A DNA stretch of 64,000 bases, taken from IMG/VR virus record IMGVR_UViG_3300047509_000270, positions 6,899 through 70,898 of that record. One strand, 5' to 3'. This DNA is from a virus. The number at the start of each line of letters is the position of its first letter. Positions within the stretch are counted from its first letter, which is position 1. The notes below the pieces were generated by a model, which ran no database searches, was not told the DNA's origin, and saw only the letters and a list, made by a program, of their open reading frames with translations. The translations under genes were made by a program, and so were the position numbers. Shown here piece by piece: positions 8,152 through 62,078 of this stretch.

Positions 8152-8306
8152 TGGACCCCTCTCGTCTCTCCTCTGACCGTCCCGAGCCCCGCACCCTTAC
8201 TGCCTAATGGTTCTCCCTATCGCGTCGCTGGGAGCCTGATGGATGGAGGAGCTCCCAGCGACGCAGAGAGAGAAGGAGGGATTGCTCCCTCCGTCGTAGC
8301 CCGGCG

Positions 8307-8945: not shown

Positions 8946-9038
8946 AGTGCTATGCTTCCTTTCTTCTCTTTCTCTGTTCTTCCGATCAAAATCAACCACA
9001 GCTTTATTTCCTCTCGTCCAGAGCCAGTGTCGGAGCTG

Positions 9039-10909: not shown

Positions 10910-10987
10910 TTAAATTTCCTTCTTAAGCTCTGCTTTGTTTATCAATTACTGTCGTGACATAATATGTCACAGCTTCGCATTAAATTT

Positions 10988-12736: not shown

Positions 12737-12942
12737 AGGGCGCCTCCTTCTTCTCTCTCCGTCCGACGAGGTCCTCCCCCTCGTCGGACGAAGCCCCACT
12801 AGAGCCTTTGGGCCTCCGCGGCCCGTCCATCCGCGCACATACCGGCGCGTGATGTGTGGGCACCAGAGCCGGATGCGGATAGACCTCTACCCCGGCCGCG
12901 AAGGTTCAGAGACTCTATGCTGTATCTGGTGCCCACGAAGGG

Positions 12943-37951: not shown

Positions 37952-38773
37952 ATGGCATTTGCAGATGGACTTTCTAAATGCGAGAGATGTGGAAAGCTTC
38001 ATACTGTGTGGGTCCAAAAAAATAGGAATTATAGATCTAGATTCTGCTCTAAAAGCTGCGGCCTTACAGCTGGAGCAACCAAAGAATGTGAGCTTTGTAA
38101 TTCTAAATTCAAAGTAAAACCTTCACATCTTCATAGAAGAAAATTCTGCTCGATCAGATGTAAGGAGAAGGCCCAGAAACACCTAAGAACTGAGGCTATA
38201 GTCCGCTACTGGAAGGATCCAGCGTGGAGATCAAGGATGATCGAGAAGATAAAACTTCACCACGCCGATGTCTCTGGCTCAAAGAATCCGATGTACGGAA
38301 AGAAAAGACCTGATTCCGTTATCCTTCTATCTAAAACGATGAAGAAGATTTTGAAGGATAACCCTCAAAGTCACGCCAATTCAATTTCCGCTAGACATGG
38401 AAAAATCAGCGTTGGTCACAAGATCCTTGCCGTCCTGATCTGGAAGTCATATGGAATTCTTCCAGAAATTAACTTCCCCGTAAGGACTTCAGTAACAACT
38501 AGATTCATAGATGTTGCGCTAGTTGACATGAAGATAGCTTTTGAATATGACGAACCGTACTGGCACGACAAGAAATTAGACGCCAGTAGAGACTTAGAGT
38601 TGTCAGAAGCTGGATGGATAACGAAGCGTGCAGGTCCATGGATAGTTAAGAAGTACAAAAAACTTGAATCTGAATTCTCTGAAAGATTCGCGATCAGAGA
38701 TCGCGTACCGTCAAAGCACGGAGCTACGCGAGGATCGCGACGTCGGATCATCAAGGAACTCCGTCATTCTTAG
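37952..38773 (+). CDS. Homing endonuclease (Zn fingers, NUMOD3-like segment, DUF559/Vsr-like nuclease)
   Basis: FCSKSC/FCSIRC, GSKNPMYGKK, FIDVA..IAFEYDEPYWH; AT-rich. Confidence 0.8.
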   Translation: MAFADGLSKCERCGKLHTVWVQKNRNYRSRFCSKSCGLTAGATKECELCNSKFKVKPSHLHRRKFCSIRCKEKAQKHLRTEAIVRYWKDPAWRSRMIEKIKLHHADVSGSKNPMYGKKRPDSVILLSKTMKKILKDNPQSHANSISARHGKISVGHKILAVLIWKSYGILPEINFPVRTSVTTRFIDVALVDMKIAFEYDEPYWHDKKLDASRDLELSEAGWITKRAGPWIVKKYKKLESEFSERFAIRDRVPSKHGATRGSRRRIIKELRHS

Positions 38774-38825
38774 TGAAACCTTTTACTGCTGACGACTTAC
38801 ATAGACCACATTACAGGGAGGGTTT

Positions 38826-38987
38826 ATGGGTCGAGTCTTCTTCGGGATTGCCGCGATCTTCTTCTTCCTGCTGGCCGTTGGTTCGAGCCTGCTGCCGAAC
38901 GCGACCGGCTGGGGTCTCTGCGCGACGGCGATCGGGCTCCTGATCGGCGGATGGACTCCGCCGGGCCCCTGGCGCAAGCCCGCGTAG
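38826..38987 (+). CDS. Small two-TM protein (53 aa)
   Basis: GGGAGG RBS; MGRVFFGIAAIFFFLLAVG. Confidence 0.55.
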   Translation: MGRVFFGIAAIFFFLLAVGSSLLPNATGWGLCATAIGLLIGGWTPPGPWRKPA

Positions 38988-39218
38988 CTACGGCGGGATG
39001 ATCTGCTCCTCCGGCGTGTCCGGCAGCGTGAAGGCGACCGTCATCTGGAACTCGTAGATGATTCTCTTCGCGGTGTCGATCGACACCAGCTTCCAGTAGA
39101 ACGGGTCTCCGCGCTCGTCCCGGAATTGCAGGCAGGCGACGATCTCGTCGTCGGAGATCTGGATCCGCAGCGGGCAGTTTGACTTCGGGATCGCGTAGAC
39201 CTTCAGAAAATCCCCCAC
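38988..39218 (-). CDS. Hypothetical protein
   Basis: Converges exactly on the upstream + strand gene. Confidence 0.5.
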   Translation of the reverse strand: MGDFLKVYAIPKSNCPLRIQISDDEIVACLQFRDERGDPFYWKLVSIDTAKRIIYEFQMTVAFTLPDTPEEQIIPP

Positions 39219-39272
39219 CCGGGTCGCAGGGGCTATTTTACCAGAGACGGAGCGAATGCTCCAGAGATGAGA

Positions 39273-39524
39273 TCAGAACGGAATATCCTCGTCGTCTGCG
39301 TCCGTCCGATCGTAGACGAGCTTCCTCCTCGGGAGCATTCCCCAGGACCGCTTCCCCTGCTGCTTCCGGAGGAGCTGGAACGCCTTCTCGGACGCCTCGC
39401 AGCCGTCGAAGGTCTCGACGTCCTTGTTGTACGAGCCGAGATCGATCCCGAGGCGCTCTAGTCCGGCGCGATCGGACTCCTTCCCGCCGATCCAGCCGCG
39501 GTAGACGATCACCTCTCTCGGCAT
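39273..39524 (-). CDS. Hypothetical protein
   Basis: Ends DDEDIPF. Confidence 0.55.
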   Translation of the reverse strand: MPREVIVYRGWIGGKESDRAGLERLGIDLGSYNKDVETFDGCEASEKAFQLLRKQQGKRSWGMLPRRKLVYDRTDADDEDIPF

Positions 39525-39581
39525 CGAATCACAGATAAGTGCAGCTATAATCGTCCACCAAGAAGATTACCTAGGGGAAGC

Positions 39582-39965
39582 CTACCGCTTCTTCTGGACC
39601 TCTTCGGCCAACTCCAGGAGGTCACCTCTCTTGATCTCGATCTTCTTCCTTCCGGTCCGAAGGTTGTAGACCTCAACGTCCCAAGTGCCTTCATCGACAA
39701 AGAGCTTGTAGTAGTACTCGATGTCGCCGTGAAGAGTGTGACCGGCTTCCGGCTCAAAGATGCCGGGATCCACGGCGCAGAGAAATGAGGCGGCTTTCCC
39801 TGGGCGACCGAGTTCCCATCCGCGATCCGAGAACTCCTCGAGCGCCTCTGCCATTTTCGGAAGCATGTACTCCGGATAGCCGTCGCTGTAATGGTAGAGG
39901 GTGACGTCATCTCCGGTGTCTTGGCCGTCGGCGTTCATCACCCGGACTTGGCAGCGCGTGCTCAT
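39582..39965 (-). CDS. Conserved phage hypothetical protein
   Basis: MSTR...LYHYSDGYP...HGDIEYYY. Confidence 0.7.
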   Translation of the reverse strand: MSTRCQVRVMNADGQDTGDDVTLYHYSDGYPEYMLPKMAEALEEFSDRGWELGRPGKAASFLCAVDPGIFEPEAGHTLHGDIEYYYKLFVDEGTWDVEVYNLRTGRKKIEIKRGDLLELAEEVQKKR

Positions 39966-40007
39966 ATTCTTTCTCCAAACTTGATCTATTATCTTCTGCC
40001 GAGAAGA

Positions 40008-40445
40008 TTACCCAGTACGAACCAATTCTAGGAACAAGCGGCGGTCGGTCATACGATTCGACTGTCCACCCGTCAGAAGCATGAAATCGTCCGCGAATGC
40101 TTCCTCGGGGCCGAACTCATAGATGACCTCGTCGAGCCACGCCTTCTGATCCTTCTCATCGAGCAACTCGAAAAGGCCGTGGCCGACTTCATGTCGGATC
40201 GTATCTGAAAGCTGGTCACGATCGGCGTGGGCGCTCAGGTTCAAGAGAACGGTCAAGCCTTCTTCGGAGTCGACGGACCCTGCCTGATACTGGCCGACCC
40301 ACTTCACGTCCTCAAATCCCATCTCCCGAAGTTCGCTCGCCGTGTAGGTGATGACCTGGAAGCCGAGCAGATCGTTGAAGCCTTTCGACTTCTTGATCTG
40401 AGCCCGCGCCTTCCGCGCCGCGGCTTCGGCGTCTCTCTCGGTCAT
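40008..40445 (-). CDS. HExxH metallopeptidase-like protein
   Basis: TIRHEVGH...PEEAFADDF; stop codon lies inside the 22-bp site. Confidence 0.7.
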   Translation of the reverse strand: MTERDAEAAARKARAQIKKSKGFNDLLGFQVITYTASELREMGFEDVKWVGQYQAGSVDSEEGLTVLLNLSAHADRDQLSDTIRHEVGHGLFELLDEKDQKAWLDEVIYEFGPEEAFADDFMLLTGGQSNRMTDRRLFLELVRTG

Positions 40446-40471
40446 TTATAATCTTCTTCCACTAAGATTAC

Positions 40472-40804
40472 CTAGAGCGACACGACGTCGTCCGGGTGAA
40501 CCGTCGGCGGTCGCATCGGATCCGTCCTGGCAATCGAGATCAGGTAGTCCTCCAGGGCAAGGGCGTCCACGAGCGCCTTACCGGACAGGCAGCCTTTGAC
40601 GATCGCTACCGACTGGAGGAGCTTCCTGGACCTCTCGACGAAGCACCATTCGCTGACGTCTCTCCGCTCGCGTGCGGAGTCGAAGGAGATCTGGATGTCC
40701 CGAAAGATCGACTCCATCTCGAAGTGTTCGAGGATCTCCTCGGTTAGGTACTCGAAGATCAGGTCGATCTTCTTGTCCAGCCAGAGTCTCTTGAAAATAC
40801 TCAT
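40472..40804 (-). CDS. Hypothetical protein
   Basis: Bounded by two 22-bp sites. Confidence 0.6.
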   Translation of the reverse strand: MSIFKRLWLDKKIDLIFEYLTEEILEHFEMESIFRDIQISFDSARERRDVSEWCFVERSRKLLQSVAIVKGCLSGKALVDALALEDYLISIARTDPMRPPTVHPDDVVSL

Positions 40805-40839
40805 CGTTTATCTTCCCGTTGGAAGATTATACACGTAGT

Positions 40840-40910
40840 TGCACAGAATTGTCCTTCTGTGCAATTTCACGATTTTTTCTCTTGACTACTGTACAGTAGT
40901 CATATATAAT
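40840..40910. promoter_or_regulatory. Divergent promoter/operator region
   Basis: TTGACT-N17-TATAAT (+, 40882-40910) containing a perfect 20-bp palindrome at 40883-40902; TGCACA-N12-TGTGCA at 40840-40863; TATAAT on the - strand overlapping the first 22-bp site. Confidence 0.75.
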
Positions 40911-40938
40911 CATGATGTCGATGAAAGGAGGCTCCCTG

Positions 40939-41520
40939 GTGAAGAAGGTCAAGATCAACCGCGAGGCGTGGCTCCGGTCGGCGTACGCCCTCCTGCGGCG
41001 CAAGCTCCTGAAGGAGGCGCCCGAGCAGGTCGCCCTCTCCTGGTCGTTCCCGGCCAAGGGCGGCACCTCGGCGAACCGGCGCCGGATCGGCGAGTGCCAC
41101 TACAAGGGCGGCTCGGCCGACGGCAAGATCGAGGGCGACCGGGTCATCCTGATCTCGCCGACGCTCCGGGAGCCCCTCCAGATCGTCGAGACGCTCCTGC
41201 ACGAGATGGTCCACGCGGCCCTCCCGATGGGCTGCGGCCACCGCGCGCAGTTCTCCCGCCTCGCCGCCCGCGTCGGCCTGATCAAGCCCTGGACGGCCAC
41301 GAAGGCCTCCCCGGAGCTCGCCAAGCGGATCACGACGGAGTTCCTGCCCGCGCTGCCCGCGTGGCCCGGCGGTCACCTCGTCATCCAGACGACGCAGAAG
41401 AACCGCCAGCTGAAGGGGATCTGCGAGTGCGAGCGGATCATCCGAGGCTCGGCCAAGCTCTTCGAGGCCGGACCGATCATCTGCGGCCTCTGCGAGGCGC
41501 CCTTCGAGCTGGCGAACTAG
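40939..41520 (+). CDS. SprT-like metalloprotease with a C-terminal Zn ribbon
   Basis: REAWL, IGEC, LLHEMVH, GH..F, CEC..CGLC. Confidence 0.8.
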   Translation: MKKVKINREAWLRSAYALLRRKLLKEAPEQVALSWSFPAKGGTSANRRRIGECHYKGGSADGKIEGDRVILISPTLREPLQIVETLLHEMVHAALPMGCGHRAQFSRLAARVGLIKPWTATKASPELAKRITTEFLPALPAWPGGHLVIQTTQKNRQLKGICECERIIRGSAKLFEAGPIICGLCEAPFELAN

Positions 41521-41556
41521 CCCGTGTACACGACAACTTCGAAGAAGGAGGATACG

Positions 41557-41712
41557 ATGCCGAAGAAGAAGAACCTGCGCTGCACGCGCTGTAAGCGCGT
41601 CAAGCCGTCCGTCCGGCGCCGGATGGACCCGTACGACCACGAGATCCTCGGGAAGAAGATCTACCGCCAGATCTGCGTGTCCTGCGAGTCCGCCATCGCG
41701 GATGAGGTGTAG
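41557..41712 (+). CDS. Small zinc-finger protein
   Basis: CTRC..DPY..CVSC; GGAGG RBS. Confidence 0.6.
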   Translation: MPKKKNLRCTRCKRVKPSVRRRMDPYDHEILGKKIYRQICVSCESAIADEV

Positions 41713-41725
41713 GATGGAGGCCACG

Positions 41726-42157
41726 ATGACCGACAAGCCCGCCGTCAAGCTTCACAACGGGAAGTACACGATCGAGTCCAAGCAGACCGGCGAGCACCGG
41801 ACCTTCTGGGTCCGGACGCAGCCCGTGGACGCCGAGTTCGCGCCCGGTCATCGGGTCGTCATGCTGCTGACCGGCTCCCAGAACGACGATCCCTCCTGCT
41901 ACACGACGTTCGGGTTCGTCAACGACGACGGGATCTTCGTCTTCCCGTCGAAGCGCCCCGGTCCGGACTGCAAAACGAACAACTGGATCCAGTTCGCCGA
42001 CCTCCTCTGGACGCTGGCGATCGACGGCGCCTTCTCGTCGTGGGCTGAGAAGGGCTTCCGGATCCACCTGGAGGGTCACTGCTTGCGTTGTAATCGCGTG
42101 CTTACGACGCCGAGGTCGATTCAGATTGGCCTTGGACCGATTTGTGAGACTCTCTAA
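41726..42157 (+). CDS. DUF6011-like protein
   Basis: C-terminal CLRCNRVLTTPRSIQIGLGPIC. Confidence 0.7.
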   Translation: MTDKPAVKLHNGKYTIESKQTGEHRTFWVRTQPVDAEFAPGHRVVMLLTGSQNDDPSCYTTFGFVNDDGIFVFPSKRPGPDCKTNNWIQFADLLWTLAIDGAFSSWAEKGFRIHLEGHCLRCNRVLTTPRSIQIGLGPICETL

Positions 42158-42701
42158 GAAGATACTGCGCCGCAGCGATGAGTCGCTGCGGGTCGTCCTG
42201 GAACTTCCCAAGACCAAGGTTACAGCTGTCGCAGATGAAGCCTCGAAAGGAGCCGCTTTTGTGGCAATGATCCACACGAAGCGTTCCGACAATGGATATC
42301 AGCCTGAAGCAGATCTGACAGGATTTAGACTTTCTGTAGAGGTCGATCACCCCTCTCAGGAGCTCTTCTTTTACACCAGCTTTTCTAAGGCGTCGCTTAA
42401 GTTGCTGAAGAGCGACTGCTTCAGGGTTGTTCCTCTCCCACGCCCGTGTAGAGACCTTTCTAAGGTGGATTGGCTTCCTCTGGTCTCTTTCTCGCCGAAG
42501 ATCTGCCTCGCACTTCATGCACACAGATCTTGGTCTCGGAGTAGCTCTCGTCCGTATACGGAACTCTATAATCGGAAGAAGCATTCTGCATTTTGTGCAA
42601 CCACGCTTCTCTGGAACTATACCAATCCAGCATTTTCTACATTTAGACGCACGGGTGTCTTTCCTGGACCCACATGGACAGGCGTCGTAATAGACAGGCA
42701 T
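42102..42701 (-). CDS. Endonuclease VII-type homing endonuclease
   Basis: CQIC..VDHCH..G.FRGFICDSCNLGLG.FQDDP; low GC; antisense to the operon. Confidence 0.85.
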   Translation of the reverse strand: MPVYYDACPCGSRKDTRASKCRKCWIGIVPEKRGCTKCRMLLPIIEFRIRTRATPRPRSVCMKCEADLRRERDQRKPIHLRKVSTRAWERNNPEAVALQQLKRRLRKAGVKEELLRGVIDLYRKSKSCQICFRLISIVGTLRVDHCHKSGSFRGFICDSCNLGLGKFQDDPQRLIAAAQYLLRESHKSVQGQSESTSAS

Positions 42702-42731
42702 TCAGAGGAGATTATACAAGAAGGAGGAATC

Positions 42732-42935
42732 ATGGGCTACGCCGTTGAAGTGATCGCCGACGCGTCCGAGGTGTTCTGCGGGAACGGACTGCGCTTCGGC
42801 ACGTACGCCGAGGCGGAGACGTACGCGAAGGACCTCTACTCGCGCTGGACCGCCGTCCGGTCCTGGCGCGTCGTCCGGTACGTCCCGCGTGGCTGGCTGA
42901 CCGAGAAGGTCGTGCTCGAGAAGGAGGCTGCCTGA
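42732..42935 (+). CDS. Conserved phage hypothetical protein
   Basis: GNGLRFGT.AEAE.YA.DL.SRW; AGGAGG RBS. Confidence 0.65.
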   Translation: MGYAVEVIADASEVFCGNGLRFGTYAEAETYAKDLYSRWTAVRSWRVVRYVPRGWLTEKVVLEKEAA

Positions 42936-43258
42936 TGTTCACGCCGAACGTCCGTCGTGCGATCTTCGATCGCACGCACACCGCACGTCCCCGCGGCATG
43001 AAGCCTGGATCCGTCAAAGTCTCGGTCGTCGTCCGGCTGACCGTTGAGGCGCCTAGGATCCGGGATATCGGCGGCCGGGAGCGTCAGATCAACCTGACGG
43101 CCAGGGAGAGGACCTGCCTGGAGCCGGTCCAGGTAACGCTCTTCGGGGACAAGGACCGTCGCCGGTCTGTCCGGCTGATCGTCAACCGGCGCCGGGCGTA
43201 CCTGTTGTCGGTCACGAGCACCGGAATCGTCGTCTTCTCGTACTCGCAGGTCTGGTAG
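42935..43258 (+). CDS. Hypothetical protein
   Basis: TGATG-coupled. Confidence 0.55.
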   Translation: MFTPNVRRAIFDRTHTARPRGMKPGSVKVSVVVRLTVEAPRIRDIGGRERQINLTARERTCLEPVQVTLFGDKDRRRSVRLIVNRRRAYLLSVTSTGIVVFSYSQVW

Positions 43259-43272
43259 AAAGGAGGATCCAG

Positions 43273-43590
43273 GTGAAATCGAAGAACGTCGACCCGGTGA
43301 AGTGCCCGCGCCTGCACGCCGCGCTCGTCCGGATGGAGGCGCGCGAGAACGAGGGCTGGAAGCGCGTCGTCGAGCTGCGTCGTACTGGTCAGGACGGCTC
43401 GGCGAGTCGCCTCGTCCGGAAGCTGCTCGGTGTCCAGGGCGAGCCGATGTCCGAGGAAACCAAAGAGAAGCTGCGTCAGTACAACGAGGAGCACGCCGAG
43501 GAGATCAAGGAACGCAAGCAGCAGGAGCGCGAGATCCAGCGTCGGACGATCGCGCTGCTGACGACCGGGAAGAAGGGTACGGGTAGATAG
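43273..43590 (+). CDS. Hypothetical protein
   Basis: AGGAGG RBS; charged helix. Confidence 0.6.
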   Translation: MKSKNVDPVKCPRLHAALVRMEARENEGWKRVVELRRTGQDGSASRLVRKLLGVQGEPMSEETKEKLRQYNEEHAEEIKERKQQEREIQRRTIALLTTGKKGTGR

Positions 43591-43931
43591 CTGTGCGCAA
43601 CCGCCTCGTCCTGTACAAGCCGCCGTTCGCCTGGAGGGTCACGACCCATCAGGCGGTCTTGCGGCTGGTCCTATGGATGGAGAGGCGCGGGCAGTGGGGC
43701 GTGGAACTCCGGAAGATCGGCTTCTGGATGCGGCGCGAATTGGAAGCGAAACTCAAAGTCTGGTAGAGGTGGATCATGTTGACAAAGTTCAAGTGGACCG
43801 TCTACGTCAACGGAGAGCTGTTCGACATCATGACCGACCGTGACGTAGAGCATCTGGTCCAGGTGTACAAGGTGACCGAGATCGACACGGAACGTGGGTT
43901 GATTGTCTTTGGTGGATAGGAAGGAGGAATC

Positions 43932-44237
43932 GTGGCTGTCACTCAGATGGAGATCGCGAGGTTGGTTGGTCTCGACGTCAGTTCTGTGAACAAGATACTC
44001 AACAAGACGCACGGGTCGATCTTCCGGAAGGAGACCATTAAGATGGTCTTCTCAAAGGCGAAGGAGCTCGGCTATACAGGAAGGATCTCCGGGAAGGGGG
44101 CGATGCGCCGAACACTCGAGGGACTGTTCCCGAAGGACGGACACATCAAGACGTTGTCGGTCGTTCGGAGCGTCTCCGTGGCGGAAGTCGCCAGGATCCG
44201 GAGGATGCTGTACGGGGAACCGGACTTCAAGCTTTAA
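43932..44237 (+). CDS. LacI-type HTH DNA-binding protein without a sugar-binding domain
   Basis: TQMEIARLVGLDVSSVNKILN...ETIKMV..AKELGY. Confidence 0.8.
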   Translation: MAVTQMEIARLVGLDVSSVNKILNKTHGSIFRKETIKMVFSKAKELGYTGRISGKGAMRRTLEGLFPKDGHIKTLSVVRSVSVAEVARIRRMLYGEPDFKL

Positions 44238-44583
44238 CCTAAAGGAGGGGAGACTCCCTTTGGGCGAACCCCTCTCTATCCGGGCCGGGGCACTTCGCTC
44301 CGGCCATCCTCGCGGGCGGCCCGAATAGACCGTCCACGAGGAATTAGGAAGAATGATCTGCCGCGTCTGCCGTCACCGTCCAAACTTCCGGGCGATCCAG
44401 TCGACCGCCCGGCGCGCGTGGCTCTACGGCGCCGTCCCGTACGGGATCTGCTGGTGCGGCATGGAGGTCGCCTGGGAACGGAACGACCGGAACTACAAGA
44501 CTCGCTGGAAACGGGCCTTAAAGAGGCTGTTCGTTTGAGCTCGTAACCAGGGGTATTTTGAAGGAATTAGAGGGGATTTTGAC

Positions 44584-45078
44584 GTGACGAAGAGAGATCG
44601 GGAGCGTTTCTGGGCTAAGGTCCGCGTCGATCGTGAGACCGGCTGCTGGATCTGGACAGCGTCGGTTAGGACCTGGAAGCGAGAGCCCTGGGACGGCGGC
44701 TTTGGTGCCTTCAAGCTCTACGGGAAGGTCGAGCGCGCCCACAAGGTCGCCTACCGGATCCTGTTCGGCTGCTGGCCGCCGCGCGGACTAGTCCTCCGGC
44801 ACGGCTGCGACAACCGGCGCTGCGTCAACGTCCTGGCGCACATCGAGCCGGGCACGCAGAAGCAGAACGTCGACGACATGATCGCTCGAGGAAGGTCGAT
44901 TCAGCAGCGTCGAAAGGCTACAATCCTTCAGGGAGACGAGAATGGGCAACCCGCGACTTCGGAAAGGCAAGGCAAATCCGTACGGTCCAACCGGCTTGTC
45001 GAGGCAGGTTTTGATGCAGTTGGAGGGTGGACCCGCAACGATCAGTTTTATCCTTGGCAAGATGGTACCGCGCAGTGA
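44584..45078 (+). CDS. HNH endonuclease
   Basis: RFWAKV..CWIWT..AHKVAY..HGCDNRRCVN..H..GTQKQNVDDM. Confidence 0.85.
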   Translation: MTKRDRERFWAKVRVDRETGCWIWTASVRTWKREPWDGGFGAFKLYGKVERAHKVAYRILFGCWPPRGLVLRHGCDNRRCVNVLAHIEPGTQKQNVDDMIARGRSIQQRRKATILQGDENGQPATSERQGKSVRSNRLVEAGFDAVGGWTRNDQFYPWQDGTAQ

Positions 45079-45301
45079 TGGCATTCACCGCGGGACTATC
45101 CTGACAGTTCTGAACAGGGCGATCATGAACGGCCTCGTCACGACGAATCGACTCGACGGAGCGAAGAAGCCGTACCTGTTCGAATTGACCGACGGCGGTC
45201 GGCGCCGCGTGAAGTGGATCCGCGGCGCGGTCAAGGTCAAGACACGTCCGGCGACCGGCCTCCGTGCGGTCGCGAACCCGAAGGATCCTGAGGAGGAGTG
45301 A
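44942..45301 (+). CDS. Winged-helix DNA-binding protein
   Basis: TILTVLNR...GLV...FELTDGGR. Confidence 0.6.
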   Translation: MGNPRLRKGKANPYGPTGLSRQVLMQLEGGPATISFILGKMVPRSDGIHRGTILTVLNRAIMNGLVTTNRLDGAKKPYLFELTDGGRRRVKWIRGAVKVKTRPATGLRAVANPKDPEEE

Positions 45302-46473
45302 TGGGCAAGCTCGACATCAGCGCAAAGAAGTGGGAGAAGAATCCTGCGATGCTCCGGATCATCAGGATGTTCGAGGACGCCTTCAATTCGGTCGGCGAGA
45401 AGATCCGCGCGGACCTTCTGAAGGCATACCGGGAGCACGCGAGAGAAAACTTCGACGCATTCATGACGGCGGCCGGAACCAGGGACGGAGAGATCTCGCC
45501 GAGAGAGGAGAGGTTTCCCGAGTTCAAGGGCTGGAGCAGGTACGTCAAGATCGATCGCGCCGGACTGGCGGGATCCCTCAGCGCGTACCCCCACACCTGG
45601 ACGGAGATCCGCAGTCTGAAAGCGAGGCTCTCGGTCGACTACGAGGAGGCCGAGAAGAACGCGAACTACTCGTACGAGAACGCCCGAGACTCCTTCGTCC
45701 ACAAGAACATCGGGAAGATCTCAAACGTCCTCGGCGCCCGTCAGGACCTGAAGAACGCCGTCATGAAGTTCGACTGGCGCGGGAACTACTTCAAGGGCAA
45801 CCTGCAGGTCTACCTGGAAGGCGCCTACTTCCGCGGCGACGTCGACATCAAGTACGTGATCCGCCGGATCCCGAACGTCACGCCGTACTTCCAGTACCCG
45901 CTCGTCTTCGTCGAGGCCGAGGTCGCCGGGAAGCACTACGCCCGGCCGTCCGAGGACGAGCTCCGCGTGCTCCTCGGTGCGACGAAGAGCGCCGCCGAGG
46001 AGAAGCGCGAGGAGGCCGTCGCAGCCGGAATCTGTCCGATGAGCGGGAAGTATGTCCCGGAGGCGCTCATGAAGGGCCTCTACAACCGGATGTCCATCTA
46101 CGTGAAGTGCCCCGGCTGCGGGGCGGTCGTGAGCGTCCAGAAGGGAAGCTGGAAGTTCCGGAACCACAAGACGCCGGGCGCCGAGCGCGCTGGGGCTGCA
46201 GCGAAGCTCGAGACGGCGGGATATTGTCCGACGTCTGGTCAGACTGCACCGTACCATCTTTTCGAGAAGCTCCTCAGGTCGTACAAGACATACCCAGGCG
46301 GTCAGGAGAAGACGGAGTACGACGTTCCGCTCTTCGACAGCAGCGGAAAGTCAAGAAGGCTTCCCTGCGAGACCTGCGGTCAGAGTGTCGTCATAAGCGA
46401 CATCCGCGGAGCCTACTCCCCAGAGAAGGTCCGAGTCATCTATCGTAAACACAAACTGCCGGGTGCGAAATGA
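45301..46473 (+). CDS. Hypothetical protein with a duplicated C-terminal Zn module
   Basis: AGICPMSG..CPGC..HKTPGA and AGYCPTSG..CETC..HKLPGA. Confidence 0.7.
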   Translation: MGKLDISAKKWEKNPAMLRIIRMFEDAFNSVGEKIRADLLKAYREHARENFDAFMTAAGTRDGEISPREERFPEFKGWSRYVKIDRAGLAGSLSAYPHTWTEIRSLKARLSVDYEEAEKNANYSYENARDSFVHKNIGKISNVLGARQDLKNAVMKFDWRGNYFKGNLQVYLEGAYFRGDVDIKYVIRRIPNVTPYFQYPLVFVEAEVAGKHYARPSEDELRVLLGATKSAAEEKREEAVAAGICPMSGKYVPEALMKGLYNRMSIYVKCPGCGAVVSVQKGSWKFRNHKTPGAERAGAAAKLETAGYCPTSGQTAPYHLFEKLLRSYKTYPGGQEKTEYDVPLFDSSGKSRRLPCETCGQSVVISDIRGAYSPEKVRVIYRKHKLPGAK

Positions 46474-46754
46474 GCGACGACTTCGAGCGGATCCGGGACA
46501 TGATCGCCGACGCCAACGAGGAGGCTCTCCTGGCGGACGGCTTCGAGGACGCGCTGATCGGCTACGTCGAGATCTTCCACAAGCTGATCGCGCTCTACGA
46601 CAAGGAGAAGTGCATCGAGATCCTGATGGTCCGGGACGGCATGAGCTACGAGGGCGCCCACGACTACTTCTCGTTCAACGTCCAGGACGCCTTCATGGGA
46701 GAGGGGACTCCGGCGTTCGCGACGATCCTGAAAAAGGTCGACCCTGCACACTAG
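46470..46754 (+). CDS. Conserved phage hypothetical protein
   Basis: ADGFEDALIG..YD..KCIEIL..DGM..A.DYFSFN...GEGTP. Confidence 0.7.
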   Translation: MSDDFERIRDMIADANEEALLADGFEDALIGYVEIFHKLIALYDKEKCIEILMVRDGMSYEGAHDYFSFNVQDAFMGEGTPAFATILKKVDPAH

Positions 46755-46811
46755 ATAAATTCTGTGCCGTACTGTATATAATCATCGTGGAAGAAGATTA
46801 TAGAGGTTGAA

Positions 46812-47078
46812 ATGGCTCGTGCACGGCGTAGTTCGATCAAGGGATGGATGCTTCGCACTTCAGAGCACAATGAGGACTTCGTCCTAGCCGTCGCGCGCAC
46901 TAAGGAAGACCTTCAGTACATCGCGGAGCAGTACGTTCTGAGCATTTACGAAGACCAGGACTACATCGAATCCTATGTTGATTTTCGCGCGAAAACGGTA
47001 AGAGTGTCTTTTGGAACGCACTCGGATCTTGAAGGGAACGGTCAGACGTTCTACATCAGCGAAGTCGAGATCCTCTAG
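46812..47078 (+). CDS. Hypothetical protein
   Basis: Between two 22-bp sites. Confidence 0.6.
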   Translation: MARARRSSIKGWMLRTSEHNEDFVLAVARTKEDLQYIAEQYVLSIYEDQDYIESYVDFRAKTVRVSFGTHSDLEGNGQTFYISEVEIL

Positions 47079-47113
47079 GTAATCTTCTCGGCAGAAGATA
47101 AAGCGAGGTTGTT

Positions 47114-47323
47114 ATGGCAAGGCGTCGGATGTGTCGTGGATGGGGAACCTACGGCGTTGGTCAGGGCGGAATCTTCGTCGCCGTGACCTGCTCCGAGTGC
47201 GACTCGACCAGGAAGTTGAAGGCGAACCTCCATGGAGAGGTTCACTTCCCGCCTCATACCCCAGTGTATCACGACAAACCCAGGAAGCCGGGCCGCAGCG
47301 GGCGGCGGTCGTACTGGAGGTAG
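47114..47323 (+). CDS. Small Cys/His protein
   Basis: CSEC..HFPPH. Confidence 0.55.
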   Translation: MARRRMCRGWGTYGVGQGGIFVAVTCSECDSTRKLKANLHGEVHFPPHTPVYHDKPRKPGRSGRRSYWR

Positions 47324-47325
47324 CC

Positions 47326-47508
47326 ATGACCAAGGCGCAGAGAGAAAAGGCGTACTTCGTGAGCATTACGCTCTACTCACCGAAAAAGAGGGGACGCCGA
47401 TCATTCATATCTGGAGGAGGCAAGTGCTACTCCAGCGGGTCGAAGGCGAGGAAGGTATACGAGACCCTCTTCAAGAGGGTCCATGGACGTGCCCCTATTT
47501 CCCTGTAA
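47326..47508 (+). CDS. Small basic protein
   Basis: GGAGG RBS, ATG 47326. Confidence 0.5.
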   Translation: MTKAQREKAYFVSITLYSPKKRGRRSFISGGGKCYSSGSKARKVYETLFKRVHGRAPISL

Positions 47509-47526
47509 TCTCTTAGCGGAGGACTT

Positions 47527-47814
47527 ATGGACGGCATGACTCCGGTCTCAGTCCTGGTCAACCCGGAAGGCGTGACGATCATCTCGATCAAGGGCAGCAC
47601 GACCTATAAAAGGCTAATCCCGTGGAAGGAGATGTACAAGCTCGGTCTCCGCGGCGAGAAGGTCACGGGCCCGGCCTTCACGAAGCAGCTCGCGAAGAAG
47701 GTGGACGAGCTGGTCGCCTCCAACGTCAAGAACATGGACTCCAACAAGGAGTTCCTGAAGAGAATGCGTCGGACGAAGGTTCTGCTGCCGCCTCGCCCGG
47801 CGGCGGCTCCCTAG
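47527..47814 (+). CDS. Hypothetical protein
   Basis: GGAGG RBS; ends at a 22-bp site. Confidence 0.6.
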   Translation: MDGMTPVSVLVNPEGVTIISIKGSTTYKRLIPWKEMYKLGLRGEKVTGPAFTKQLAKKVDELVASNVKNMDSNKEFLKRMRRTKVLLPPRPAAAP

Positions 47815-47837
47815 GTAATCTTCTTGGTGGAAGATAA

Positions 47838-48092
47838 ATGAACGACGAGGACAGGAAGCTGATCGAAGGGATCGACGCCGTCATGGAAGACCGTCCGATG
47901 AAGCACGAGTGCGAGAACTGCGGGGACGTCGGGATGGCGCCGGTCTCCAAGCTCCCTCCTGGCTGGAAGTACATCTCCGAGAACGACGAGCTCGTCGACA
48001 GCCTCGATGACCTGGACAGAAGGACGGTCATTGTGTGCGCCGTCTGCTTTGGTCTCGTGACGCGGATCATCAAGAAGTGGGCTCCCAAGTAA
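47838..48092 (+). CDS. Small zinc-finger protein
   Basis: CENC..CAVC; ATG immediately after one site, stop codon inside the next. Confidence 0.6.
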   Translation: MNDEDRKLIEGIDAVMEDRPMKHECENCGDVGMAPVSKLPPGWKYISENDELVDSLDDLDRRTVIVCAVCFGLVTRIIKKWAPK

Positions 48093-48111
48093 TCTTATCT
48101 GCGAAAGATAA

Positions 48112-48456
48112 ATGACCGTGTACACGGAGACTTCTAGAGCCTGGAGGTTCTCTCCGCACGCCATTGAGCGTCTAGCCAAGCGGATGAATCTGCTGATGGA
48201 CATGTCCGTCGAGGCGCAAATCTCGAAGACTCTGAACTCTGGTCAGGCGAAGCTGATTAGGGTGAACTACGGACGGACCCTCTACGAGATTCCGATCTTC
48301 GGAGTCCAGATGGTAGCCGTGTGCGACACAGAGGAGCACGTCGTCGTAACATTCATGGATGCGAAGAAGTGGCACCGGAAGCTGAACTGTCGTCGTACAC
48401 GGCACAAGAATTTCCGGCCGAAAGAATCGAAGGAATCGATCGACGAAGAGGAGTAG
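48112..48456 (+). CDS. DUF4258/RelE-like small protein
   Basis: FSPHAIERL...VVVTF. Confidence 0.5.
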   Translation: MTVYTETSRAWRFSPHAIERLAKRMNLLMDMSVEAQISKTLNSGQAKLIRVNYGRTLYEIPIFGVQMVAVCDTEEHVVVTFMDAKKWHRKLNCRRTRHKNFRPKESKESIDEEE

Positions 48457-48482
48457 ACAACCGCCGGTCTTGCTGGCATAAT
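48454..48482 (+). promoter_or_regulatory. Sigma70-like promoter
   Basis: TAGACA-N17-CATAAT followed by a TGCACT-N12-TGTGCA box at 48491-48514. Confidence 0.55.
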
Positions 48483-48534
48483 ACTTGGGCTGCACTCAAC
48501 TTCGGAACTGTGCATCGTGAAGAAGGAGAGAAGA

Positions 48535-48969
48535 ATGGAACTAGGTAGAGCCGCTTACATCACGTCAGGCCCCTCCATCAACCAACCGGCCGTACGTGTC
48601 GAACTCGTGAAGCTCGGGAACGGCTACATGACCGAGCTGATCGAGAACAGGCAGCAGCCGGAGCCGGAGGTCAAGGAGGACATCGCCACCGCGGTCGAGG
48701 CCGAACTCGATCCGCCGTCCGTGGACGAGCAGATCGACCGGATGGTCGAGGGGCTCGGCGCCTTCATGCGGTCGGTCCACGACAAAGGGGCCGGTGAGGA
48801 CTGGAAGGAGGACGGCGACAAGGAGAAGATCCGCGCGGCCGTCAAGCTGTTCATGCCGAACGTCGTTCGAAGCGATGTCGGAATCAAGCGGTACGTAGCG
48901 CCGCGTCAGGAGAGCCTCGTCTTCGAGTCGAAGAAATCTCTGATGGAGTACCTCGAGAAGAACCTGTAG
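48535..48969 (+). CDS. Hypothetical protein
   Basis: AAGGAG RBS. Confidence 0.65.
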   Translation: MELGRAAYITSGPSINQPAVRVELVKLGNGYMTELIENRQQPEPEVKEDIATAVEAELDPPSVDEQIDRMVEGLGAFMRSVHDKGAGEDWKEDGDKEKIRAAVKLFMPNVVRSDVGIKRYVAPRQESLVFESKKSLMEYLEKNL

Positions 48970-49004
48970 TCGACACGGCATAGGGAAGAAGAAGGAGAAG
49001 AGGG

Positions 49005-50408
49005 ATGTCGCTGCACATCGGAACGACCATACCGAGCGGTAAGCCGTTTCATCTCCAGGACGACCTGAGCGACGTCAAGCTGGCGATGCTCGCGCAGTCG
49101 AAGAAGGGGAAGACGTACGGCCTGGGCGTGATCCTGGAGGAGCTCTGCTACGCCGAGCGTCCATGGATCGCGACCGATCCGGCGAACAACCTCTATGGTC
49201 TCCGCGTCAAGCCGGACGGCAGTCCGAGCGGCCTGAAGGTCGTCGTGATCGGCGGGACGCACGGGGACCTGCCGTTCGAGAAGGACTCCGGCGACCGCCT
49301 CGCGGAGGCGCTCCTCGCGACGCCGACCTGTGCCGTGATCGATATCGCCTTCGAGTCGCTCGGGACGGTCCGTCACTTCATGACGGCCTTCGCCGGTCGC
49401 CTGATGCAGTCGAAGCCGGACCCGTCGCGCGTCATCTTCCTGGAGGAGGGTCAGGTCCTGATCCCCCAGAAGGCCCGCGGCCCGCAGATGGAGGCCTGCA
49501 AGTCCGCCGTCGCGAAGCTCGCGGTCGTCGGTGGGAACTTCGGCTACGGCGTCGTCGTCGCCAGCCAGCGGGCCGCGACGATTGACAAGGACGTACTCTC
49601 GCAGTGCGAGGGTCTCATCGTCATGGGGATGACCCACAACAAAGACCGTAAGACGGTCTGGGAGTGGATGGAAGCAAAGGACATCGACGAGCAGGCCGAG
49701 ACGGCCTTTGACGAGCTCGGTTCGTTGCAGCCGGGCGAAGCATATTACTGGAACCCGGGCGAGAATCGCCTGGAGAAGTTCATGTTCCGGAAACGGCACA
49801 CGCTCCATCCGCGCGAGATGAAGAAGCTGAAGATCCGTCCCGGCGAGGTGAAGCTCGGAGAGGCGACGAAGGTCGTCGAGCAGCTCCGCTCGCTGATGAC
49901 GCGGACGACCGTCTCTGTCCCTGACGGACCTAAGAAGAATCCGGAAAAATTCGGAAAGCGGTCCACCGGATTTGACGATCTGGCGAAGCTCCAGATCGAG
50001 AAGAGCGCGATTGAAGGCAACTACATGAATCAGGTGAGCCACCTGAAAGGCGAGTTGGAGCGCGAACGGAAGGCCAGAGTGGACGCCGAGCATCGTCTAC
50101 ACGCCGTTCGCGAGGCGCTCCAGCCGCAGTACGACAACCTACGTGTGCTCTTCGAGCAGTTGTCGTCGACGTCGGGACGCACCGTCTCGGATCGCGGTCC
50201 ATTCCTGAAGTGGCTCGAGAAGGCACCTAAGATCGGCATGAAGACGATGCTGGAGCACCTGCTCGAGAACGGCTCGGCGACACGCCAGCAGCTCGCGACG
50301 ATCGCCGGGGTCGCTCGGTCGACCGCGTACGACTACGTCGGTTGGATCCTCCGGAACCAGCTCGCCGAGGACACGGGTGGCCGGATCGTCCTTCGACCTG
50401 TCCACTAG
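49005..50408 (+). CDS. HerA/FtsK-superfamily ATPase with a coiled coil and C-terminal HTH
   Basis: Variant Walker A AQSKKGKT, Walker B IFLEE, ASQRAATIDKDVLSQ, L.PGEA; C-terminal LATIAGVARST. Confidence 0.8.
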   Translation: MSLHIGTTIPSGKPFHLQDDLSDVKLAMLAQSKKGKTYGLGVILEELCYAERPWIATDPANNLYGLRVKPDGSPSGLKVVVIGGTHGDLPFEKDSGDRLAEALLATPTCAVIDIAFESLGTVRHFMTAFAGRLMQSKPDPSRVIFLEEGQVLIPQKARGPQMEACKSAVAKLAVVGGNFGYGVVVASQRAATIDKDVLSQCEGLIVMGMTHNKDRKTVWEWMEAKDIDEQAETAFDELGSLQPGEAYYWNPGENRLEKFMFRKRHTLHPREMKKLKIRPGEVKLGEATKVVEQLRSLMTRTTVSVPDGPKKNPEKFGKRSTGFDDLAKLQIEKSAIEGNYMNQVSHLKGELERERKARVDAEHRLHAVREALQPQYDNLRVLFEQLSSTSGRTVSDRGPFLKWLEKAPKIGMKTMLEHLLENGSATRQQLATIAGVARSTAYDYVGWILRNQLAEDTGGRIVLRPVH

Positions 50409-50417
50409 AGGTGTACG

Positions 50418-50903
50418 ATGGAACCACGCGGCAGTTTCGGTGAGCGTATGGTGATGATCTGCGCCGTCTGCAACAACAATCACCACGACGGCGGCAAGGA
50501 AGTCTTCGTCCCGGACGCGACCGGCGTCGTTCGTCGAATGAAGTGCCCGCTCTGCTGCTGCCTGGACTGCGTCCAGATGGCCGACGATCCGATCCGCCGA
50601 CAGATCCGTCCGCTGATGATGGGCCAGACGCTCCAGTCGAAGTACAACCTGAGCGTCGAGGAGTACAAGCCCGGGCAGGCTCCGACCAGGAAGAACATCG
50701 AGATCAACGCTCCGGGTCCGCTCAATCTGAAAGACGCGATGGCACAGATCGGCGGGATGCTCGGCCTGCAGCCGTCGGCGACGGCGGCGCGACACAACCT
50801 CGGGCAGGCTGGATGCCGATGCGGGAAGAACGCCGTCTCGCGCTGCATCGGCTGCGAGGAGCCGCTCTGCATGAAGTGTCTGAAGGGCCACGAATGCGGG
50901 TAG
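50418..50903 (+). CDS. Cys-rich protein with a B-box-like C-terminus
   Basis: CRCGKNAVSRCIGCEEPLCMKC..H. Confidence 0.6.
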   Translation: MEPRGSFGERMVMICAVCNNNHHDGGKEVFVPDATGVVRRMKCPLCCCLDCVQMADDPIRRQIRPLMMGQTLQSKYNLSVEEYKPGQAPTRKNIEINAPGPLNLKDAMAQIGGMLGLQPSATAARHNLGQAGCRCGKNAVSRCIGCEEPLCMKCLKGHECG

Positions 50904-51009
50904 AAGGTAGGGCGCCGGGTGAACGTTTCCCGGCGCCCTGCAGAAGATGGAAGGAAAAGGAAATCTCAGTGTACCGCCGGTATAATTATACCTCAAGGAG
51001 GATCATCCG

Positions 51010-51342
51010 ATGGACAACGGCATCACGGTTCTGATGACGGCGCTGCCGGGACAGCGAGTCACCGACGAGAAGAGTCCCGAGGACGGTTCGATCCTGGCGT
51101 ACCGGAAGAACGGCGACGAGGTCCTGTTCGCCTCATGGGACGCCGAGACCTCGAAGGGCATGGTCTGGCTGCCGGTCGGCGAGTTCTCGCCGGATCCGGA
51201 GTCGATCCAGCCGCCGGACCTCGAGCAGCCCGGCCAGGAGCCTGCCGAGCCGGAGGCGGACGGCACGACGGAACGTCCGTCAACAGCAGGTCCGTTCGGT
51301 CGTGGCTCCGGTAGTCTCCGGCGCCGTCCGGGTGTGGAGTAG
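51010..51342 (+). CDS. Hypothetical protein
   Basis: AGGAGG RBS; TATAAT upstream. Confidence 0.6.
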   Translation: MDNGITVLMTALPGQRVTDEKSPEDGSILAYRKNGDEVLFASWDAETSKGMVWLPVGEFSPDPESIQPPDLEQPGQEPAEPEADGTTERPSTAGPFGRGSGSLRRRPGVE

Positions 51343-51344
51343 TC

Positions 51345-51728
51345 ATGGGAAAGAAGGGAAAGCCGGACGAGCCGGAGCAGTTCGAAGTCTGGATCTCGAA
51401 GGTCGACGGCTGGAGTCAGGTCCAGGAGGGCGGCAACGGCGGCGTCTTCCCGAACAGGAACCGGGCGATGCTCCTGGCCGAGTCGAAGTCCCACGGGGAA
51501 GGCGTCATCGAGACCATGGTCATCGCGCGTAAGCCGATCGTCGTGTTCAACGGCGAGGCGATCGGCGTGAAGCATCTTGTCGGCGCCGTCGAGAAGAAGA
51601 AGGAGATCAAGGATGCCCCGATTCACAGCGGTAGTTCGCAAACGGTCAACATTCCGGACGCCGGTCTTGCAGACCAACCTGAAGCCGGTCCTGGTGGGGC
51701 CGGACGGGAAGGAACTGCTCAAGGATGA
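51345..51728 (+). CDS. Hypothetical protein
   Basis: GGAG RBS. Confidence 0.55.
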   Translation: MGKKGKPDEPEQFEVWISKVDGWSQVQEGGNGGVFPNRNRAMLLAESKSHGEGVIETMVIARKPIVVFNGEAIGVKHLVGAVEKKKEIKDAPIHSGSSQTVNIPDAGLADQPEAGPGGAGREGTAQG

Positions 51729-51972
51729 CAAGGGCGTCTACATCGGCACCGGCACGCAGAAGTTCGAGGTCACGACGACCGACTCGACCGACGACCCGCT
51801 GACCGACGAGGCCGGAAACCCGGTCACGGCCGGATCGCCGGAGGCGCTCCTCCGGAAGGTCAAGGAGCACTTCGCCGCGGAGGAGTTCGAGAATGTCGAG
51901 ATCCTGGAGGTCTCCGTCCAGGAGACCCTGACCATGCGGAAGGTCACCGGAGAGGAGCTCGCGAAGCTGTGA
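51613..51972 (+). CDS. Hypothetical protein
   Basis: ATG 51613 after AGGAG; overlaps the upstream gene. Confidence 0.55.
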   Translation: MPRFTAVVRKRSTFRTPVLQTNLKPVLVGPDGKELLKDDKGVYIGTGTQKFEVTTTDSTDDPLTDEAGNPVTAGSPEALLRKVKEHFAAEEFENVEILEVSVQETLTMRKVTGEELAKL

Positions 51973-52247
51973 CGATCGAGGGGGACATTCCGGTCGCCTG
52001 CACGTCGTCCGGCGCGGTCTACCTGCTGGAGGCCGTCGTCGAGGTCAACGATGGCGAGGCGCTGCTGGCCCGGCGCGTGATCGAGGCGCAGGGCGTCAAC
52101 GCGCGCCTGACCGGGCTCCCCTGCGCGTCCTGCCGGTCCGTCGTCTCGACCGACCGCCGGACCGAGAAGGCCGAGGTCTGCACCTACCGGCCGCTCCGCG
52201 GGCCGCTGCACGTTCCAAGGCAACCCGGAGGCCAGCCCCCAGGCTGA
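51969..52247 (+). CDS. Hypothetical protein
   Basis: GTGA-coupled. Confidence 0.5.
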   Translation: MTIEGDIPVACTSSGAVYLLEAVVEVNDGEALLARRVIEAQGVNARLTGLPCASCRSVVSTDRRTEKAEVCTYRPLRGPLHVPRQPGGQPPG

Positions 52248-61883: not shown

Positions 61884-62078
61884 CTAGTCGCCCTTACCGC
61901 CGAACAGGCCCTTGACGGCCTTGATCGCGATCCCGGCGATGTTCCCCTGGTTCTTGTCGGCACCGTGGTCGGCGGCCTTCTGGACGAGCTCCAGGAGGTC
62001 GGCTTTCAGCTTGTCCGGAGACGATCCGCCGTACTTCGTGACGAAGGCGTCGATGTGCGTGATCAGGTCTTTCAGCAT
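61884..62078 (-). CDS. Hypothetical protein
   Basis: GGAGGA RBS. Confidence 0.6.
   Translation of the reverse strand: MLKDLITHIDAFVTKYGGSSPDKLKADLLELVQKAADHGADKNQGNIAGIAIKAVKGLFGGKGD

Follow-up and report, generated by a model that had tools for sequence, protein, structure and literature searches.

This study concerns a 64,000-nt stretch of a soil virus genome (the window: bases 6899-70898 of the 70,898-bp record IMGVR_UViG_3300047509_000270; all coordinates are positions in the window) and a 22-bp palindromic element that separates small genes in two divergently transcribed arrays within it. The element occurs in five versions that follow one another in the same order in related viruses, whereas the genes between them change. 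Homology between close genomes breaks off at these elements, which supports the view that they are cassette boundaries at which genes have been swapped. Our preferred reading, to which we give somewhat less than an even chance, is that they are DNA-level junction elements which serve as crossover points for cassette exchange by short homology and have a regulatory role in addition.

Junction sites in two divergent arrays

A scan with TAATCTT-N8-AAGATWA allowing at most two mismatches returned eight positions against 0.14 expected by chance, and none of 100 shuffles reached eight. The whole 70,898-bp genome holds these eight sites and no others, and the reversed-pattern control gave zero. An earlier reading of this DNA made from the sequence alone (the sequence-only reading) had described the palindrome as a 7-8-7 element at successive gene boundaries of two divergent arrays. 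The palindrome and its arrangement were borne out, and in gene sense the 22-bp element is better written as 8-6-8, namely TAATCTTC-N6-GAAGATWA. Its 6-bp centre is of five kinds (CAACGG, GTGGAA, TCGGCA, TTGGTG and TCTGCG), none of them palindromic, and all sites are oriented with transcription. From the promoter outwards the leftward row reads CAACGG (40808), GTGGAA (40449), TCGGCA (39989) and TTGGTG (39548), and the rightward row GTGGAA (46779), TCGGCA (47080), a half-site (47506), TTGGTG (47816) and TCTGCG (48090). The matching of centres across the arrays in the same order, also claimed earlier, holds for GTGGAA, TCGGCA and TTGGTG and is more than coincidence; the last two pairs give 27-nt alignments at 96% identity. 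At 47506, where a degenerate site had been proposed, a left arm is indeed present, but the right arm is absent and the remnant is fused to the leader of cassette T.

Across all records we curated 44 sites. Left-arm positions 2-5 (AATC) are invariant in all of them and the full TAATC is present in 41, while the right arm varies (GATTA, GATAA or AATAA); the arm positions adjoining the centre are the most variable. A general scan of viral contigs with a 14-base pattern gave single chance matches only, among the matches listed. CCTAGG adjoining the left arm was considered as a further feature of the sites and rejected, as it is not specific to them. As a separate observation, CTAG is about 4-fold under-represented genome-wide (61 observed against approximately 255 expected), and many of the 61 copies adjoin sites.

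The stop codon of the upstream gene falls in the TAA of the left arm or 1 nt before it at six of the seven non-head sites, the half-site included, which agrees with the sequence-only reading; at the exception, 39548, it lies 12 nt away. The sites at 40808 and 46779 are array heads (no gene lies upstream of the former, and the nearest stop is 25 nt upstream of the latter), and the description of the sites as gene boundaries applies to the junction sites but not to these two. An ATG directly after the right arm without a Shine-Dalgarno sequence had likewise been reported. This is true of half of the eight full sites (47816, 48090, 40449 and 40808, at 0-3 nt), whereas the remaining four have 11-23 nt to the start and a GAGG/GGAG-like Shine-Dalgarno sequence. 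All three reading frames are closed within 30 nt by 27 of the 44 sites, which is suggestive of a three-frame stop role, although not of a universal one.

A promoter consensus scan flagged the left head and two unrelated places, and no internal site. At the left head the predicted -10 overlaps the site and the start point would lie inside it, so that the left arm of this head site would not be transcribed. Nine of 11 head-like sites have TA directly before the arm, which gives TATAAT. Given the predicted overlap with the -10 at the head, a regulatory role of the sites is likely. A second 22-bp palindrome, GCAC[AT]-N12-TGTGC, has 20 strand matches against 3.4 expected, and its copies at 40841, 46746, 48492, 52798, 55564, 56891, 57570 and 59925 lie at or just after predicted promoters. 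It also stands 11 nt before the array head in the relatives G002 and G005 and, with a 10-nt gap and a variant right half, in G001; several copies are kept in relatives. It is probably the binding site of a putative transcription factor.

An ordered scaffold with changing cassettes

Relatives were found by searches with a 391-aa protein, an SprT-like protein and the site pattern. Sites are present in the records G001, G002, G005, G008, G009 and G010 and in contig L181. G006 and G007 are further relatives, of which G006 is 98% identical to L181 and has, in a relaxed scan, two degenerate sites with 7- and 8-nt centres. No other repeated palindrome was found in the site-poor relatives L140 and L141. 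Between the complete genomes, core genes share approximately 65-89% nucleotide identity.

In transcriptional order, the centres read CAACGG, GTGGAA, TCGGCA, TTGGTG, TTGGTG, TCTGCG in G001; CAGCGG, GTGGAA, TCGGCA, TTGGTG, TCTGCG in G005; CAACGG, GTGGAA, two decayed sites, TCTGCG, TTTGTG in G002; CAACGG, GCCATA, GTGGAA, TCGGCA, TCTGCG in G008; GTGGAA, TCGGCA, TTGGTG in G009; CCAACG, CAACGG, GTGGAA, TCGGCA (half), TCGGCA, TTGGTG, TCTGCG in G010, which has others with different centres besides; and TTGGTG, TCTGCG in L181. The order CAACGG, GTGGAA, TCGGCA, TTGGTG, TCTGCG is kept in eight of nine arrays. Over the nine arrays 70 ordered pairs are concordant and one is discordant, a count that is descriptive because the arrays share ancestry and the pairs are not independent.

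The scaffold is a single array in the relatives. It follows the 391-aa gene in G001 and G002 and, in G005, which had no called homologue of the 391-aa gene, a homologue of the 94-aa gene; in G008 it lies behind a late gene in inverted orientation, in G009 it lies elsewhere, and G010 has several arrays. The 391-aa gene is followed directly by a 76-aa gene in G006 and G007, with neither sites nor cassettes at that locus. The two arrays of the window are therefore best seen as two partial copies of one ordered scaffold, which accounts for the pairing of their centres in the same order. The sequence-only reading took these nested inverted pairs as a sign of exchange between the arrays; the two partial copies of an ancestral scaffold offer a simpler origin. 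No single rearrangement that derives the two arrays from the single-array order of the relatives could be reconstructed.

Compared between related genomes, as the sequence-only reading had proposed, cassette content varies: the arrays of the relatives keep the sites and their order but hold different genes. BLASTP at E<=1e-4 against eight related records gave no match for six of the 10 cassette open reading frames (ORFs) of the window (E, D, C, Q, R and U; Table 1), in keeping with the claim that the genes between matching sites are unrelated. Pfam and PHROGs assigned no family to the cassette proteins; V had a weak phrog match only, and phrog_13182 was matched by the 94-aa gene that precedes the right head. 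From its HExxH motif, cassette D may encode a small metallopeptidase.

Shared cassettes show where genes have moved. Cassette T is 91% identical at the nucleotide level in G001 and stands in both viruses just before a TTGGTG site, and cassette '42' lies after TTGGTG in G010 and as a 90-nt remnant after TTGGTG in G001, again at 91%. Cassette S, which is followed by the half-site in the window, occupies the TCTGCG|TTTGTG interval behind an 80-aa ORF in G002 and the interval between CAACGG and GTGGAA in G010, with 72-82% nucleotide identity across G002 and G010. Cassette Y is found after TCTGCG in L181 and between TTGGTG and TCTGCG in G005 (74% nucleotide identity), cassette Z in the G006 mini-array and after the G008 head (82% amino acid identity), and a 170-aa cassette in G002 and G010 (69% nucleotide identity). 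The two most recent exchanges (T and '42') are thus same-slot, whereas the older ones involve other slots, and the kind of site belongs to the slot and not to the cassette. Four cassettes lie between two like sites in direct order (TTGGTG twice in G001, TCGGCA twice in G010, CCAACG/CAACGG in G010 and GTGGAA twice in G002), the footprint that would be expected of a circle inserted at a like site.

Close genomes place the break points at the sites. L181 and G006 have 98% identical flanks around a differing block; the match extends one base past the left arm of the first site and is taken up again from the position of the last site's right arm onwards, where the conserved gene that follows has its ATG. 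In run X2, which contains a near-identical relative at low depth, a contig agrees with every base of 39329-40012, after which the match is lost, 2 nt outside the TCGGCA site. Between the window and G005, homology ends after the TAATC of the right head site, inside the left arm, and the right arm at the tail of the left array together with 37 nt is common to the G005 tail, though the centres differ. The joints around T in G001 are imprecise: T is accompanied there by the 5' part of one cassette and the 3' part of a second, both left as remnants. Break points at the borders of arm and centre are equally expected from homology in the arms. The sequence-only reading had envisaged a system that captures, swaps or inverts cassettes. 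Relatives and break points speak for swapping at the sites; inversion or shuffling between the arrays found no such backing, as the contigs of two runs contained no alternative joints (inversion isomers or circles) at the sites, which is weak evidence because contigs drop rare variants. Separately, the near-identical relative in X2 lacks the 1,299-bp stretch 45447-46745 (most of the 391-aa gene and the 94-aa gene), and the joint ends where the GCAC palindrome in front of the right array head begins, at its first base.

Short homology, site-specific recombination or regulation

In the short-homology reading, two inverted 8-bp half-sites, probably bound by a dimeric virus protein, would flank the 6-bp centre, and the five paralogous site versions form the ordered scaffold. 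The scaffold begins at a promoter, where the head site would take an operator-like position over the -10 and the start point, and beyond the head the sites lie precisely between the stop codon of one small accessory gene and the start codon of the next. Recombination would join like sites, either of co-infecting relatives or carried by small circles, most probably by short homology promoted by the Sak4-like annealing protein of the virus; genes would in this way be exchanged or added, and the scaffold would keep its sites and their order. The two partial copies of the window point outwards from a divergent promoter region and would be a fixed arrangement, not an inversion switch. Like sites offer 22-30 identical bases. 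The model would explain the same-slot preference, the rarer cross-slot moves (via the 8-bp arms), the imprecise joints, the absence of isomers from the assembly and the remote position of the virus's recombinase. The sites, their order, the turnover of cassettes and the position of the break points are shown by the comparison of genomes, whereas protein binding, the operator function and the route of recombination are inferred.

That recombinase, a 263-aa tyrosine recombinase of the Xer/IntI clade encoded at 58531, had been put forward by the sequence-only reading as the possible enzyme. By sequence its best solved relatives are the integron integrase IntI4 and archaeal XerA; the catalytic R, H-x-x-R and Y align with both, and the protein looks intact. 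Its N-terminus consists of 80 Cys-rich residues of zinc-finger-like look in place of the usual core-binding domain. The gene is kept in seven records (G000, G001, G002, G005, G006, G008 and G009) and no copy turned up in G007 and G010, both of them partial records. It is a candidate enzyme only; it is never adjacent to an array and lies 7-10 kb or more from every one, relatives included; the tightly packed surroundings of the gene held no candidate site. When the families common to all site-bearing records were searched for a conserved DNA-binding protein, only the recombinase, a methyltransferase-like protein and two proteins without a known family, of 64 and 116 aa, stood out. All seven site-bearing records have the 64-aa protein (61884-62078), and in G009 and G010 its gene is located next to an array or within one.

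If the sites were true site-specific sites of the Xer/IntI-like recombinase, the five centres would act as mutually incompatible ('heterospecific') cores; cassettes would be exchanged or inserted only in register and the arrays would not self-delete. We regard this as unlikely, though a serious contender. It would account for the 8-6-8 form of the sites, for their asymmetric centres and common orientation with transcription, for the confinement of the sites to variable arrays, for the four cassettes flanked by duplicated like sites and for the hybrid arms at heads and tails, and it is consistent with the retention of a recombinase in seven records whose best solved relatives are IntI4 and XerA and whose catalytic residues align with theirs. 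Some findings, moreover, count against short homology combined with regulation. Centres are nearly invariant within a kind while arms vary (the centres differ at two of 210 positions and the arms at 41 of 560; Fisher p = 1.6e-4, in a partly circular test, since the centre itself served to define the kinds). Such conservation is predicted by core-matched site-specific recombination and not by operators or plain homologous recombination; the argument of the sequence-only reading that matching spacers are not required of operators is a fair one and its strongest point. The junctions are precise, with the ATG at exactly +0 after the right arm in at least seven unrelated cassettes, a precision that would sooner be expected from site-specific joining or strong selection. 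No DNA-binding family was matched and no binding protein identified among the cassette and early proteins, the support for the promoter is a consensus scan that concerns one head only, and the comparison draws on about nine related metagenomic records.

Site-specific exchange, on the other hand, is difficult to reconcile with the occurrence of the same cassette (S, Y or Z) between different centre kinds in different viruses, which also contradicts the strict core-matched exchange of the sequence-only reading. The cassette remnants and imprecise junctions of G001 argue in the same direction, as do the variability of the arm positions adjoining the centre, the overlap of the head site with a predicted promoter and the remoteness of the recombinase, which is also present in G006 with its two degenerate sites. 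Three matched inverted pairs coexist with one unbroken contig without alternative joints, a weak point since it concerns contigs only. Still more specific, and rather doubtful, is the proposal of a virus-borne cassette-exchange platform made up of five ordered, incompatible sites and a small Xer/IntI-like recombinase with a zinc-finger-like N-terminus. If true, circles would be inserted and genes swapped in register between co-infecting viruses without array deletion, in an integron-like system that relies on heterospecific cores instead of attC folding.

Purely regulatory sites would be stoperator-like operators or road-blocks, with a repressor at the promoter and at every junction, and turnover would be illegitimate recombination that spares the sites. 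The position of the head site over the predicted -10 and start point suggests such a role, and so do the placement of sites at gene junctions next to stops and with transcription, the conservation of half-sites without covariation, and the second palindrome of the same 22-bp span at several promoters. Nevertheless, we judge this explanation improbable: sites are absent between the conserved early genes and occur only where cassettes vary, near-identical genomes break at them, centre conservation and order stay unexplained, and no repressor candidate was found.

RNA hairpins between cistrons, acting in processing, stabilising or translational coupling, are highly improbable. Stops in or next to the left arm, ATGs directly after the right arm, G-rich centres which in gene sense resemble, together with GAAGA, a Shine-Dalgarno sequence, and the closure of all three frames by many sites would suit such a function. 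However, the arm covariation score was 0.032 against a shuffled mean of 0.055, with 481 of 500 shuffles reaching the observed score. Of the 31 distinct rows, 13 have pair 2-21 and 14 have pair 8-15, one-sided changes break pairs 2-21, 6-17 and 8-15, and changes on both sides of a pair amount to two cells, fewer than the shuffled mean of 3.4. A structured RNA element whose pairs are kept by compensatory change is thus not supported. Folds are weak (-4.1 to -10.1 kcal/mol, z-scores +0.35 to -2.6) and lack a T-run, the best fold is not the arm-arm hairpin at two of eight sites, and at the head the predicted start point falls downstream of the left arm of the site. A search of 38000-52000 against Rfam (E<=1) returned one sub-threshold RtT match, unrelated to the sites. 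These results also speak against RNA processing at the hairpins, which the sequence-only reading had named as an alternative. We infer instead that the sites are two half-sites recognised on DNA by a putative dimeric protein, in an operator-like position at the head.

Comparison with known systems

The closest functional parallel is provided by the promoter-early stem-loop (PeSL) motifs of T4-type phages, which are described as short, conserved intergenic elements that include the upstream stop and the downstream start and are concentrated in hyperplastic regions beside ORFan genes (PMC2839356, PMC4122927). Each is reported to combine a sigma-70 promoter with a stable G/C-rich stem-loop terminator, and recombination between them to explain insertions, deletions and replacements among close relatives and to be able to give small circles (PMC2839356, PMC4122927). 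Like PeSLs in these descriptions, the sites lie in hypervariable ORFan regions, and insertions and deletions between close relatives break at them. Unlike PeSLs, they have a promoter at array heads only, and the 22-bp palindrome folds weakly and has no T-run; the accounts of PeSLs, for their part, mention no ordered set of centre kinds.

An integron is a row of mostly promoterless single-gene cassettes behind a head promoter, each bounded by an imperfect palindrome (attC, 57-141 bp and defined by structure). The promoter-headed rows of single-gene cassettes, the imperfect palindromes and an Xer/IntI-clade recombinase in the genome, with IntI4 as its best solved match, recall this arrangement. 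In contrast to integrons, the sites measure 22 bp and are conserved in sequence, no attC-like site travels with the cassette and the recombinase does not adjoin the array head; the integron-integrase model scored 27 bits on the 263-aa protein against a cut-off of 265. The system works like the modular shuffling of PeSLs and looks like an integron array, but lacks the defining features of both.

Stoperators are protein-binding sites of which many short copies lie over gene junctions, oriented with transcription, with one at the early promoter; position and orientation are thus alike here. In Cluster A mycobacteriophages they are described as asymmetric, bound by a monomer and spread through the genome (PMC9283540). 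Unlike stoperators as portrayed there, our sites are palindromic, limited to variable cassette arrays and of ordered centre kinds.

Heterospecific lox/FRT, Xer/dif, the lambda core and shufflon sfx sites have inverted arms around an asymmetric 6-8-bp centre that must match between partners, and different centres do not cross-react. The inverted arms, the asymmetric 6-bp centre and a tyrosine recombinase in the same genome are common to our system. Unlike lox/FRT, dif and sfx, however, the arms are only 8 bp long, the positions adjoining the centre vary and no recombination product was seen in the contigs. A shufflon also differs in that the sites here stand between complete genes, with neither alternative gene ends nor isomers in contigs, and inversion between matched pairs would not act as an expression switch because all genes stay behind the same central promoters.

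A full-text literature search with a limited set of terms found no description of ordered, centre-typed 22-bp junction palindromes. The gain and loss of small, fast-changing accessory genes in viruses of microbes is poorly understood, and the sites provide a testable handle on cassette turnover: a boundary element conserved to the base across viruses with 65-89% identical core genes, in five versions of fixed order. Such regularity of architecture is unusual, and simple experiments could tell the two mechanisms apart. Exchange by short homology would extend the PeSL idea from T4-like phages to an unrelated group of circular-genome viruses with a far more regular architecture; exchange by the Xer/IntI-like recombinase would represent a new kind of integron-like system, and nature would then supply short recombination sites that are orthogonal to one another. 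Under both mechanisms, the arrays indicate where the host-interaction genes of this virus family are located.

Genome context and further features

The two ends of the 70,898-bp record share a 127-bp overlap, and the genome is therefore taken as complete and circular; the assembly of the source run gave a single circular 70.8-kb contig. G+C content is approximately 60%. Megablast of 39000-49000 against deposited phages gave no match. No relative of the SprT-like protein was found in bacterial and archaeal genomes, and a site-pattern scan of such genomes yielded chance matches only, in 12 unrelated records (one site position in 10 of them, two in the other 2). Features are listed in Table 1.

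Table 1. Positions of junction sites, regulatory signals, cassettes and other genes in the window
Feature	Position	Strand	Remarks
Head site, leftward array, CAACGG	40808-40829	-	left arm overlaps -10 of leftward promoter; no gene upstream
Junction site, left array, GTGGAA	40449-40470	-	
Junction site, left array, TCGGCA	39989-40010	-	near-identical relative in X2 ceases to match at 40012
Tail site, left array, TTGGTG	39548-39569	-	tail-type right arm (GACGATTA), then 37-nt tail sequence common to G005
Head site, rightward array, GTGGAA	46779-46800	+	head-like left arm TAATCATC preceded by TA (TATAAT)
Junction site, right array, TCGGCA	47080-47101	+	
Half-site, left arm only	47506-47513	+	fused to leader of cassette T; full site at equivalent place in G002
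Junction site, right array, TTGGTG	47816-47837	+	ATG directly after
Last site, right array, TCTGCG	48090-48111	+	ATG of V directly after
Predicted leftward promoter	40826-40855	-	AGGACA-18-TATAAT, 10/12 consensus match; -10 shares 4 nt with head site
Predicted rightward promoter	40882-40910	+	TTGACT-17-TATAAT, 11/12; for SprT-like operon
GCAC[AT]-N12-TGTGC palindrome	40841-40862		11 nt upstream of left head site
GCAC[AT]-N12-TGTGC palindrome	46746-46767		11 nt upstream of right head site
Terminator-like hairpin and T-run	39212-39232	-	after cassette B; consensus match only
Cassette E	40472-40804	-	left array; no homologue in relatives
Cassette D	40008-40445	-	left array; 145 aa; HExxH motif; no homologue in relatives
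Cassette C	39582-39965	-	left array; no homologue in relatives
Cassette B	39273-39524	-	homologues outside arrays in G002 and G005, inside array in G010
Cassette Q	46812-47078	+	right array
Cassette R	47114-47323	+	right array
Cassette S	47326-47508	+	right array
Cassette T	47527-47814	+	right array
Cassette U	47838-48092	+	right array
Cassette V	48112-48456	+	right array
Tyrosine recombinase, Xer/IntI clade, 263 aa	58531-59322	-	candidate enzyme only; 10.4 kb from nearest site, in another operon
Primase-polymerase/D5 helicase, helicase, Sak4-like annealing protein	5866-12838	-	
Sak4-like single-strand annealing protein	9039-10307	-	candidate for short-homology recombination
HerA/FtsK-like ATPase	49005-50408		only packaging-like gene; weak PHROG 'terminase large subunit' match

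A long plus-strand block of large proteins, the virion block (13144-37549), has no Pfam family in nine of its 10 proteins and glycosyltransferase matches in the tenth. This family-less block and the HerA/FtsK-type ATPase fit what may be a tailless virus. Inside the early operon, a 78-nt G+C-rich non-coding stretch (44267-44344) is 90-95% conserved in G001, G002, G005 and G009, more than the surrounding genes, and it could be a structured RNA or a protein-binding site.

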